Shown: positions 20,016-45,488, counted from the first letter of the stretch. The stretch is 64,000 bases of DNA from Candidatus Brevundimonas colombiensis (GCA_029202665.1 CP119326.1:589092-653091), one strand, 5' to 3'. Notes: a model not told the origin generated them from the letters alone. Numbers and translations: made by a program.

Positions 20016-21281
20016 CTACTTCCGGCGCGACTTGCGCTGACCGGCCTTACCCTTGGGACGTGACAGACGCACGACCTTGCGGGCGTTCTCTTCCGCCGTG
20101 GTGCGCACGGTGGGGATGGAGCGCGGGGCCAGACCATAAAGCGAAGCCATGGGGGCGTCCTCGACCACGGCGAGATCGTGCTCGCCATAGCCGTTGAAGC
20201 CGGTCGACATCGCGACGCCGTAAGCGCCCAACATGCCGATCTCGATGAAGTCGCCTTCGCGCACATCGGCCGGCAGCCAGAAGGGTCCCGGCATATGGTC
20301 GATGGAATCGCAGGTCGGACCGTAGAACTGGAACGCCTTCAGCTCGCCCGAGCTTTCCCCGTCCCGGACCAGCTTGGTCGGGAAGGGCCAGCGCGAGTGG
20401 GTCGCATCGAACAGCGAGCCGTATGAGCCGTCGTTCAGATACAGGGCGTCGCCCTTGCGCAGATCGACGCGCGCCAGGATCGACGAGGATTCGGCGACCA
20501 GCGACCGGCCGGGCTCGCACCACAGTTCGGTCGTTTCCGACACCGGCATCTCGTTGAAGCCGCGATGGATGGCGTCGGCGTATTCGCTCATGTCCGGCGG
20601 GACCATGCCCGGATAGACCGAGGGGAAACCGCCGCCGACATCAACCACGTCGACGATCACGCCTGCGCGGCTGATCGACCGACCGACCTGGGCCATCGCC
20701 GCCTGATAGGCGGTGGGGCGCATGCACTGCGAACCGACATGGAAGCTGACGCCCATCAGCCCTTCCTTTACCGCCTGGCGCGTGGCCAGCAGCAGGGCCG
20801 GAGCCTGGTCCGACGAGACGCCGAATTTGCCCGACAGGGTATAGGCGGCGCCGTCGGCCGAAACGGCCATACGCACGATCAGATTCAGGTCGTCCGCGCC
20901 GCCGGTGGCGTCGAGGATCTTGTTCAGCTCTTCCACGCAGTCGAGCGAGAAGGTGCGGACGCCGTGGTCGAAATAGGCCTTGGTGATCGCAGAGCGGCTC
21001 TTGACCGGATGCATGAAGGCCAGGCGCGCGTCATCGCTGACCGAACGGACCAGTTCGATTTCGGCGATGGACGCCACGTCGAAGGCGCGAACGCCTGCCT
21101 CGACCAGGGTCTCGATGACCCAGCGCGACGGGTTCGCCTTCACCGCATAGAAGACGTCGGCTTTTAAATTATCCTGGAACCAGCGCGCCGCTACGGAAAC
21201 CGAACGCGGCCGCACGAGTGCGACGGGACGTTCAGGAGGCCGCTCACGGACCAGGTCCAGGGGAAGTTGGTACGTGCGCAA
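20016..21281 (-). CDS. Fold-type III PLP-dependent ornithine/lysine decarboxylase (TTG start)
   Basis: FYAVKANP PLP lysine, FDVAS, GVSFHVGSQ, VDVGGGF, EPGR, GPTCDSID, GAY. Confidence 0.93.
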   Translation of the reverse strand: MRTYQLPLDLVRERPPERPVALVRPRSVSVAARWFQDNLKADVFYAVKANPSRWVIETLVEAGVRAFDVASIAEIELVRSVSDDARLAFMHPVKSRSAITKAYFDHGVRTFSLDCVEELNKILDATGGADDLNLIVRMAVSADGAAYTLSGKFGVSSDQAPALLLATRQAVKEGLMGVSFHVGSQCMRPTAYQAAMAQVGRSISRAGVIVDVVDVGGGFPSVYPGMVPPDMSEYADAIHRGFNEMPVSETTELWCEPGRSLVAESSSILARVDLRKGDALYLNDGSYGSLFDATHSRWPFPTKLVRDGESSGELKAFQFYGPTCDSIDHMPGPFWLPADVREGDFIEIGMLGAYGVAMSTGFNGYGEHDLAVVEDAPMASLYGLAPRSIPTVRTTAEENARKVVRLSRPKGKAGQRKSRRK

Positions 21282-21362
21282 TTCACGTAGCCCCCTGCTA
21301 ATTGTTAACCCAGACCGGCGTTAGCAGCGCGTAACGGTTAGACCTACGGGGTCCGCCGGAAA
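21282..21362 (-). promoter_or_regulatory. Candidate cis-regulatory RNA (H-type pseudoknot) in the decarboxylase leader
   Basis: CCGGCG (21359-54)/CGCCGG (21320-15) crosses CUGCUAA (21327-21)/UUAGCAG (21301-295); the second stem overlaps the AGGGGG SD. Confidence 0.6.
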
Positions 21363-21523
21363 CGGGGATATGGGGGCTGTGGACTGTCATGTAAAGCGGT
21401 AATTTCATGGCAGGGCCTGGGTTTGGCCCGGCCCGGACTGTCACAAATGTCCGTCCACCCTCGTAATGGTGCGCGAAGGGCAACCTTGGCCTTTGGCCAT
21501 CGTTGAGACCAGGGGAGGCCTGA

Positions 21524-22747
21524 ATGAACCGCTGGATATTCCTGTTTCGACGCATGTCGCGCCAGCTGTGGTGGCGCGCCAGCCTGTACGCCGCCTTGGG
21601 CGTGGTCGCCGCCCTGGCCGCGGCCTGGGGCGCGCCCTTCGCGCCGCCGGTGCTGGCCGAGCGGTTCGGCGGCGATTCCGTCGAGGCGGTGCTGACCATA
21701 CTGGCGTCCAGCCTGCTGGCCGTGGCGACCTTTTCGCTGGGGGCCATGGTCACGGCCTATACCAGCGTATCCAGCGCCGCGACGCCCCGCGCCGCCGCTC
21801 TGATCACCGGCGACGAAAGCACCCAGAAGGCGCTGGCCACCTTCGTCGGCGCCTTTCTCTACGCCATCGTCGGGGTCACGGCGATCAATGCGCAGTATTA
21901 CGGGCCGGGCGGCCGGGCGATCATCTTCGTGTTCAGCCTGGTCGTGGTCGCCCTGGTCGCGTTTCGCCTGCTGACCTGGGTCAGCCGACTGACGCGGCTG
22001 GCGCGGTTAAGCCACACGGTCGAGCGGATCGAGGCCGAGGCCCAGGCCGCCCTGACGGCCGAGGCGAGACGACCCCGAATGGGGGCCTCGTCCGGCGTCC
22101 TGGACCAGGGGCCGGTCGTGACCGCGCCCCAGACCGGCTATGTGCTGAACGTGGACGTTCAACGTCTGCAAGCCACGGCCGAGCGGGCCGAGGGGCGGAT
22201 ACAGGTGATCGCCCGCCCCGGCGCCTTCGTCATGCGCGGCGAGCCTCTGGCCCGGCTGAGCGGCGAGGCCGTCGATGCGGACGCGGTGCAGACGGCCTTC
22301 TCCCTGGGGCGCGAACGGTCGTTCGACCAGGATCCCCGCTACGGCCTGATCGTGCTGGGCGAGATCGCGGACAAGGCCTTGTCGGCCGCCGTCAACGACA
22401 TCGGCACTGTCGTCGGCGTGATCGGTTCGGGGGTGCGGCTTCTGGACCTGTGGGCCGAAACGACGCCGGACGATCGGGCGCCCTGCGACCGCGTGCTGGC
22501 TGAGCCCTTGTCGGCGGACGATCTGCTGGACGACATCTTCGGCCCCGTGGTGCGCCACGGCGCCCACGATCTGACCAGCGCGGTTCGTTTGCGAAAGGCG
22601 CTGACCTCCCTGTCCGTTCATCCGGTCCTGTCGAACGCCGCGCAGGCCATGGATGCGCGGCTGATGCAGGATGCGGATTTCGCCAACGTCGCGGACATGG
22701 AACGGCTGCGGCGTTGCGGCGGCGGGGGCCGGACAAGGGCAGGCTAG
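21524..22747 (+). CDS. DUF2254 family membrane protein
   Basis: ILASSLLAVATFSLG, TQKALATFVGAF, RSFDQDPRYGL, KALSAAVND. Confidence 0.85.
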   Translation: MNRWIFLFRRMSRQLWWRASLYAALGVVAALAAAWGAPFAPPVLAERFGGDSVEAVLTILASSLLAVATFSLGAMVTAYTSVSSAATPRAAALITGDESTQKALATFVGAFLYAIVGVTAINAQYYGPGGRAIIFVFSLVVVALVAFRLLTWVSRLTRLARLSHTVERIEAEAQAALTAEARRPRMGASSGVLDQGPVVTAPQTGYVLNVDVQRLQATAERAEGRIQVIARPGAFVMRGEPLARLSGEAVDADAVQTAFSLGRERSFDQDPRYGLIVLGEIADKALSAAVNDIGTVVGVIGSGVRLLDLWAETTPDDRAPCDRVLAEPLSADDLLDDIFGPVVRHGAHDLTSAVRLRKALTSLSVHPVLSNAAQAMDARLMQDADFANVADMERLRRCGGGGRTRAG

Positions 22748-45377: not shown

Positions 45378-45488
45378 AAAAAAGCGGTCCTTTCGGACCG
45401 CCTTGAAGTGGCATCATCGAGAATGAGGTGCGGAGGCAGCATGACCGGCCTGGGCCAGTCAAGTCGGGGGGCGTCGCCGCCTCCACAT
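45378..45488 (-). ncRNA. gsrN: GsrN-like general-stress-response sRNA
   Basis: SigT promoter upstream; 5' stem UGGAGGCGGC/GCUGCCUCCG enclosing a CCCCCC loop and a UGACUGGC/GCCGGUCA hairpin; terminator GCGGUCC-GAAA-GGACCGC-U6; adjacent to phyR and a maoC-like gene. 5' end estimated. Confidence 0.8.

Follow-up and report, generated by a model that had tools for sequence, protein, structure and literature searches.

The decarboxylase gene described here, which lies on the minus strand of a 64,000-nucleotide stretch of the Candidatus Brevundimonas colombiensis genome (the window), is preceded by an untranslated leader of ~95 nt that is conserved, structured, present in single copy and tied to this one gene, and that belongs to a family spanning the order Caulobacterales, with members in Brevundimonas, Caulobacter, Phenylobacterium, Asticcacaulis, Hyphomonadaceae and others. 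This leader looks like an undescribed local version of the translation-control RNA odc1, to which it is probably related. The element can be regarded as a real cis-regulatory leader, its action probably being exerted at translation, and the reading that we favour, with some reserve, is that a lineage-specific relative of odc1, composed of a sensor half and an output placed in the initiation region, tunes translation of the decarboxylase.

The odc1 motif (uORF-25-1) has been described from 272 alphaproteobacterial examples located before ODC genes (Brewer et al. 2021, RNA Biol 18:2417; PMC8632094). In its structure the 5' terminus forms a pseudoknot with the loop closed by a long stem, the RBS being located on the right shoulder of this stem, its main start is a UUG, and a second start two nucleotides upstream opens an 11-codon uORF with a conserved peptide (PMC8632094). 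It has been demonstrated in E. coli reporters that both starts are in use with modest output, and that the main frame ceases to be expressed when the invariant CCGCAAG that precedes the pseudoknot arm carries point mutations (PMC8632094).

In the window, the gene in question, whose start position is kept in 30 loci of the genus, specifies a PLP-dependent decarboxylase of the ornithine/arginine/DAP type (Pfam Orn_Arg_deC_N at 1.1e-40), for which no NCBIfam equivalog was reached, and it probably forms one operon with a deoxyhypusine-synthase-like gene. The product of the latter matches NCBIfam NF002699, '1,9-bis(guanidino)-5-aza-nonane synthase', at 563 bits, above the cut-off of 500. The function attached to NF002699 is the homospermidine route via agmatine, and the Arginase/agmatinase family is represented in this genome by just one borderline match of 22.8 bits. 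The leader sequence is contained in a 242-bp gap between the decarboxylase and a divergent DUF2254 membrane-protein gene (start 21524, plus strand), a neighbour that is not conserved, the upstream DNA being unalignable even within Brevundimonas. In the order in which the minus strand is read, the elements of the locus are the following:

21390 to 21395, minus strand: predicted -35 box TTTACA (CTTTACATGAC invariant in 30 Brevundimonas loci)
21367 to 21374, minus strand: predicted -10 box CCCATATC, 17 nt past the -35 box (CCTAAATC in relatives), its position conserved in the genus alignment
21360 to 21362, minus strand: UUU
21354 to 21359, minus strand: 5' arm of helix P1 (stem 1), CCGGCG, paired in 100% of 80 distinct leaders
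21341 to 21353, minus strand: hairpin P2, GACC-CCGUA-GGUC, immediately 3' of the P1 5' arm
21328 to 21340, minus strand: variable linker UAACCGUUACGCG, whose length and sequence vary even within the genus
21321 to 21327, minus strand: CUGCUAA (stem 2 5' arm), of which the final CUAA is the invariant junction before the P1 3' arm
21315 to 21320, minus strand: 3' arm of P1, CGCCGG, identified from pair counts across leaders
21302 to 21314, minus strand: conserved tail UCUGGGUUAACAA, consensus YUGGGUUNAAC, directly 3' of P1 in all types
21295 to 21301, minus strand: UUAGCAG (stem 2 3' arm), a variable linker except for CAG
21291 to 21297, minus strand: CAGGGGG, Shine-Dalgarno (SD; AGGGGG at 21291-21296) and candidate P5 5' arm, GGGG invariant
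21271 to 21289, minus strand: hairpin P4, UACGUG-AAUUGCG-CACGUA, predicted to hold the UUG in its loop and the GUG in its stem
21284 to 21286, minus strand: out-of-frame GUG, two bases ahead of the main start, opening an overlapping frame of 31 codons
21279 to 21281, minus strand: UUG start of the decarboxylase ORF, a conserved start position
21258 to 21264, minus strand: UCCCCUG, codons 8-10, candidate P5 3' arm, proposed from MFE/centroid folds and pair counts
20016 to 21281, minus strand: decarboxylase gene, UUG start, 421 aa
18750 to 19841, minus strand: deoxyhypusine-synthase-like gene (Pfam DS, 1.9e-87), co-oriented and 3' of the decarboxylase

An alignment of 30 same-genus genomes is near-invariant from TTTACA to the start codon and becomes unalignable farther upstream. 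The promoter boxes were deduced from this conservation and not from a sigma-70 scan; sigma-70 and intrinsic terminator scans of the locus called nothing, TTTACA included. The predicted -10 box is similar to the Caulobacter -10 consensus, GCTANAWC. Because the predicted boxes stand at a fixed distance, P1 is located at the predicted 5' end of the RNA, which would fall at ~21358-21364, a few bases ahead of CCGGCG. The segment CATGAAATTACCGC (21396-21412, minus strand; genus consensus GAAAWWACCGC) adjoins the -35 box upstream and is possibly an UP-like element or a site for a regulator. Also upstream of the predicted -35 box, AACCCAGGCC (21414-21423, minus strand), which is kept solely in the closest Brevundimonas, complements the leader tail GGUCUGGGUU (21306-21315) over 10 pairs including one wobble, and the Hyphomonadaceae leaders contain within their insert an invariant CCCAGGCC that is complementary to their own tail GGCCUGGG; such complementarity between an upstream segment and the tail may be due to chance or to an isoform with an upstream start.

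A common core was found in 106 of 130 decarboxylase upstream regions drawn from six families of Caulobacterales. Its 5' part comprises (Y)CCGGCGGA(C), an insert, (A/G)CUAACGCCGG, YUGGGUUNAAC and a short linker, and its 3' part GGGGG, N4-5, GUG, NN and (U/A/G)UG. The leaders fall into five types, which are set by the insert:

Type A: Caulobacteraceae, window included; insert of 26-33 nt
Type B: family f5; insert of 12 nt (GGAGGNNACGAU)
Type C: Hyphomonadaceae; insert of 135-190 nt with a duplicated module
Type D: family f2, genera g10, g13 and g38; insert of 60-170 nt
Type E: family f2, genus g2; shortened P1 (GGCG/CGCC) and a clear hairpin around the tail

The 80 distinct leaders in which P1 is fully paired belong to types A, B and D and display a single G-C/G-U alternation, no covariation of P1 was seen within types A-D, and its arms remain complementary across inserts of 12 to ~190 nt. 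The GAC/GUC hairpin P2 follows P1 in 63 of the 106 leaders with a variable loop (CCGUA, CCGU, CGAA, CGAU, CCGUU or 10-16 nt), and the blocks GGA(C), CUAA and the tail YUGGGUUNAAC are invariant and unpaired. The junction reads GCUAACGCCGG or ACUAACGCCGG in 80 of the 106 leaders and RACGAWGCCGG in type B, and all that is conserved of the linker is GCGCYG, at and slightly past its 3' end, in family f1. It is this 5' domain, made up of P1, P2 and the unpaired blocks, that is under the strongest selection, which makes it the likely sensor. In other lineages the tail forms the loop of a hairpin with a covarying stem (GCUU/AAGC, CAAAGC/GCCCUUUG, GAUUG/CAAUC or GGAUUA/UAAUCU). Neither P2/GACCC nor the CUAAC junction nor the 5' flank, where a partner for the tail was sought, offered one that is consistent across types, and a mutual-information scan of the 80-sequence structural alignment returned lineage-linked signals only. 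The nested folding energy of the leader is ordinary relative to shuffles (z = 0.02 in one test and -0.38 in another).

The variable spacing of the P1 arms, together with the position of the element past the promoter and its run into the SD, speaks for action as RNA and not as a DNA operator. An operator whose conserved blocks bind a transcription factor of the divergent promoter region would agree with CCGGCG/CGCCGG being an inverted repeat and with the intergenic region being common to the divergent DUF2254 gene, but its half-sites would have to tolerate a spacing of 12 to ~190 bp, the element follows the conserved promoter boxes in the direction of transcription, the divergent gene is not maintained in a genus in which upstream DNA cannot be aligned, and the related helix of odc1 covaries as RNA; we consider this explanation very improbable.

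The distribution of the element was further assessed by an exact-pattern scan, genome-wide over 185,579 species, which gave at least 120 matches. Among the first 80 of these, 76 have a decarboxylase motif within 420 nt, 2 are at contig ends and 2 are chance-like, 78 being counted as Caulobacterales decarboxylase leaders, and the taxa among the matches listed are Brevundimonas, Caulobacter, Phenylobacterium, Asticcacaulis, Hyphomonadaceae and Caulobacterales. A covariance model, R1, was built from type A only, because MAFFT misaligned type B against type A, and the other types were aligned to it. With R1 a single copy is detected in the window, as in the whole 3.3-Mb genome, which is in line with an earlier, sequence-only reading of the window in so far as it took the segment for a structured leader of the decarboxylase gene. 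Across the class (401 genomes, strict filters) R1 yielded nothing convincing outside the order, and a match outside the order (G420), being inside a methyltransferase-like coding frame, was rejected as a false positive.

The leaders of type C (L072-L090) are without the dual start and carry a tandem duplication of the module GGCGGAC..GUCC(G)ACUAACGCC, and their anti-SD segment CCGGCGYAAGCUCCCAAG pairs with UUGGGAG..GCCGG just ahead of the AUG. The RBS-sequestering stem that results (CUCCCAA:UUGGGAG plus CCGGC:GCCGG) has a duplex z of -3 to -4. In one leader of family f5 (L100, genome G100) the P1 domain is replaced by an unrelated hairpin, CACUCGCGUUUUAAAACGUGAGU, and the linker, SD, GUG-NN-UUG and coding start are retained, a replacement which suggests that sensor and platform may be separable modules.

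The sequence-only reading had assigned to this leader an H-type pseudoknot over the RBS, in which stem 1 (CCGGCG/CGCCGG) and stem 2 (CUGCUAA/UUAGCAG) would occlude the beginning of the SD and be stabilised by a polyamine-related ligand. Its sequence letters and coordinates are exact and both stems do cross in the window with a zero-nucleotide junction, a topology identical to that of the odc1 model, in which a 5' stem crosses an RBS-holding stem. When the 81 nt were shuffled 3000 times with dinucleotide content preserved, perfect stems of >=6 and >=7 bp that cross appeared 52 times (1.7%), which is unusual for a single sequence but carries no correction for the 64 kb that had been scanned. When the conservation of the two stems was evaluated in 27 distinct Caulobacteraceae leaders, stem 1 held, being 100% paired and invariant with no varying pair, but stem 2 did not (71.9% paired): five of its seven pairs depart through unpaired cells alone and are left uncompensated, zero pairs are changed on both sides, and all seven are kept in just 5 of 28 distinct Brevundimonas leaders. 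The region of its 3' arm is the most variable stretch of the leader, and none of the variants found there (UUAUCAG, UCAACAG, UCAUCAG, UUA-CAG, UUUACAG, CAAUCAG and CUAACAG) is accompanied by a change in the partner, the 5' arm being fixed because it ends in the invariant GCUAA. Besides, the duplex energy between the stem-1 loop and the SD/start region equals that of shuffled loops (z = -0.06 in the window; mean of -0.11 for 35 type A leaders), and types B to E contain no sequence equivalent to stem 2. With stem 2 unconserved in relatives and loop complementarity at the level of shuffles, the pseudoknot as drawn is not supported; this comparison of sequences appears to refute it largely, and we attribute to it only a slight probability. 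Of the alternative pairings that accompanied it, CGUAG/CUACG, which is 84.6% paired where present but absent from Caulobacter-type leaders, was rejected on pair counts and on duplex energy relative to shuffles, and the UAACC of UAACC/GGUUA belongs to a linker that is missing from most Brevundimonas.

The same reading had placed the switch over the RBS, and the RBS and start region are indeed likely to be the expression platform. The arrangement SD-N4/5-GUG-NN-(U/A/G)UG is present in 89 of the 106 leaders; in the window the GUG is 4 nt past the SD and two bases ahead of the UUG (GUG-AA-UUG, 21286-21279). The length of the frame opened by this GUG ranges overall from 1 to >31 codons (31 in the window, 17 in one genus, 1-2 in a second genus), and the peptide of this frame is dictated by the main frame. 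Hairpin P4 is 83.5% paired in fixed register, and in other lineages its position is occupied by a hairpin of different sequence or register (UGUG/CACA, AGUGA/UCACU, CUCG/CGAG and UGAG/CUCA). Helix P5 (CAGGGGG/UCCCCUG) is 89% paired in 44 leaders, and in 2 sequences one of its pairs has passed from G-C to A-U by a change on both sides, alongside CCC-CUG to CCU-CUG. Taken together in the 44 leaders, P4 and P5 attain 86.6% pairing and include 5 pairs in which both partners have changed, values reached by shuffles in 0-4 of 500 depending on the measure, and both helices are part of the MFE and centroid folds. The P5 3' arm encodes a conserved Pro-Leu, and thus its conservation needs no RNA explanation; from these alignments P4 and P5 would appear to be modestly supported as helices, the evidence for the P5 3' arm being weak. 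In type B, a loop GUGAC can be matched with GUCAC past the SD in three Watson-Crick variants (U-A, C-G and A-U), with about half of the sequences mismatched and with the partner base covarying within P4 too, and this pairing is considered unproven.

An initiation region of this kind could instead serve constitutive tuning, whereby a weak UUG, a decoy GUG and P4/P5 fix a low translation rate with no sensing, the upstream conservation then serving mRNA stability or standby ribosome binding. The recurrence of P4 and P5 in both predicted folds is compatible with this explanation, as are the use of both odc1 starts with modest output in E. coli reporters (PMC8632094) and the fact that a switch-like alternative pairing was sought and none established. 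Nevertheless, ~25 unpaired nt that are invariant order-wide exceed what stability or standby binding usually need, and L100 exchanged its 5' domain yet kept the SD and the dual start, suggesting separable modules, and we deem constitutive tuning improbable.

With regard to known RNA families, a cmscan against Rfam 15 of positions 21150-21650 on both strands gave 0 matches at E<=10 (SAM-II, SAM-V, preQ1 and guanidine classes included), a search of the whole window at the gathering threshold gave no match in the leader, and 20 other distant leaders matched no family, apart from a chance alpha_tmRNA fragment. At the gathering threshold the window matches a single Rfam family, RF01529 (Caulobacter sRNA CC3552), which is matched in full length at 45382-45484 on the minus strand with 84.6 bits versus a gathering score of 50. 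The speF leader is an orphan structured leader of alphaproteobacterial ODC-type genes, for which six compounds of the pathway were tested and none was bound (Corbino et al. 2005, PMC1273637). A search for speF (RF00518) returned matches above the cut-off in 0 of 61 genomes of the order, a result to be read alongside 14 control genomes that were without a match too, so that it has no positive control. An identity with speF was rejected on the grounds that no Rfam model matches and that the RF00518 seed alignment is unlike the leader. Consequently, of the two possibilities that the sequence-only reading had raised, a divergent speF leader fails, and an undescribed class is half right, given that odc1, with several shared hallmarks, had already been published.

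The link with odc1 is best appreciated in family f6, of the same order, which possesses odc1 leaders of typical form; these and the published S. echinoides construct can be aligned column by column. In this family the pseudoknot and the long stem P1 covary (96.8% paired, 5 double-changed pairs, 0 of 500 shuffles), and CUUGGUUGAAGC, directly after the pseudoknot arm, is the same box as the window-type YUGGGUUNAAC, type E having GCUGGUUAAAAGC at that place. Like odc1, the window leader precedes an ornithine-decarboxylase-type gene in Alphaproteobacteria and begins near the RNA 5' end; it has a 5' stem whose 3' arm is preceded by an invariant C-N-A-A(G), which is (G/A)CUAA in the window type; it follows the succession of SD, 4 nt, first start, 2 nt and main UUG start; a hairpin joins its first start to codons 2-3 (CUUG/CAAG in S. 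echinoides, ACGUG/CACGU in the window); and it shares with the odc1 of f6 the GGKUU tail box. Helix P1 occupies the same position as the odc1 pseudoknot stem, although its letters differ and it is without covariation in types A-D. Unlike odc1, the window leader has no conserved stem pairing the loop to the RBS or first start (the z of -0.06 and the type A mean of -0.11 reported above), a stem of this RBS-sequestering kind being present in f6 and in Hyphomonadaceae type C; its first start is GUG instead of UUG; its uORF has 31 codons, and 1 to >31 elsewhere, versus a constant 11; the signatures CCAUGGGAC and CCGCAAG are absent; and window-type leaders have the extra invariant blocks GGAC, CUAA and YUGGGUUNAAC. 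A covariance model of odc1 (R2), built on 12 f6 leaders together with the published sequence of S. echinoides, scored 91-101 bits on held-out f6 leaders but left the window and types A-E without a match at E<=10. Conversely, R1 reaches 13 bits at most in f6, in one leader. Class-wide, R2 gave one match in a sample of about one genome per genus under strict filters. Lacking the RBS stem, the fixed uORF length and detection by R2, the leader is therefore set apart as a variant of odc1 and not as a detectable member. On the other hand, the tail box, the C-N-A-A, the dual start, the gene and the order that both have in common would hardly have been acquired twice by chance. Decarboxylase homologues at 47-52% identity (L047-L050; family f2, genus g7, and family f5, genus g14) have neither motif, being preceded instead by a GC-rich hairpin, GTAGCGGGCC..GCCCGCC, that resembles the terminator of the upstream gene, and they are probably a different paralogue.

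It is also conceivable, if unlikely, that the leader is a self-standing riboswitch class with no descent from odc1, in which a ~45-nt core, as in type B, gates the SD and has a pathway metabolite (putrescine, homospermidine, agmatine, ornithine or arginine) as its ligand. Near-invariant unpaired nucleotides beside a helix that tolerates inserts of 12 to ~190 nt are typical of aptamers, the association with the gene is strict, with one copy per genome, and neither Rfam nor the odc1 model matches. Against these points stand the conserved blocks for which the search across types found no partner, the several features common to odc1, hard to gain twice by chance, and the failure of the related orphan speF RNA to bind any of the six pathway compounds (PMC1273637).

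In the favoured reading, that of a lineage-specific odc1 relative, the segment would be the 5' leader of an mRNA encoding a polyamine-pathway decarboxylase and a deoxyhypusine-synthase-like enzyme. At or near the RNA 5' end, P1, a stacked P2 and the single-stranded GGA(C), CUAA and YUGGGUUNAAC would form the sensor half, and the translation-initiation region, with its SD GGGGG, decoy GUG and true UUG, would form the output half. P4 would bury the GUG and show the UUG in its loop, pairing of the SD with codons 8-10 (P5) may occur as well, and on the basis of these modelled helices P4/P5 would provide the output platform. A signal, either a pathway metabolite or a protein, would then set the amount of initiation and the choice between the two starts. 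That the element is a metabolite riboswitch is rather unlikely, and that it is a binding site for a protein is, if anything, slightly more doubtful.

Understanding how polyamine synthesis is fed back at the RNA level in bacteria is of interest, as this process is poorly understood and as the alphaproteobacterial ODC leaders on record, speF (2005) and odc1 (2021), are both still orphans. The variant occurs in Caulobacter, a genetically tractable model genus, and it offers a natural size series, from ~60 nt in type B to ~250 nt in Hyphomonadaceae, in which invariant blocks mark the functional core and which connects textbook odc1 (f6) with forms that have lost the RBS-sequestering stem. From this series of sizes and forms it follows which parts of odc1 can be dispensed with and which cannot, the latter being the dual start, the 5' helix, the GGKUU box and the C-N-A-A junction. 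Sensing of the odc1 type and the choice of start codon thereby become directly testable with small constructs. In this regard, a compact riboswitch of ~45 nt (P1, GGA/CUAA and GGGUU tail) that senses a polyamine-pathway compound and steers ribosomes between the decoy GUG and the UUG is a long shot, but if this were true, a ligand would for the first time have been validated for odc1-type RNAs and the polyamine pathway would have its first natural riboswitch.

Apart from odc1, the leader can be compared with several known systems. It resembles speF RF00518 in that conservation sets in at the 5' end, that a stem is capped by a variable insertion and that the gene which follows is of the ODC type (PMC1273637). 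It differs from it in having an unrelated sequence, and in that speF is ~350 nt long with its start codon >150 nt away. The translational riboswitches that adopt an H-type pseudoknot (SAM-II, preQ1-I/II and guanidine-III) are small, are located over or next to the SD and operate through SD occlusion. The leader is like them in size, in its SD-adjacent position and in the SD-occlusion logic that had been proposed for it, but it has no Rfam match at E<=10 and the crossing stem is not conserved. Finally, SpeFL of Gammaproteobacteria is an ornithine-sensing arrest peptide ahead of speF, in which the peptide is the sensor and control is exerted by transcription termination. Although the overlapping frame of the present leader has no conserved length and its sequence is set by the main frame, both systems have in common a short upstream or overlapping frame that is tied to an ornithine decarboxylase.
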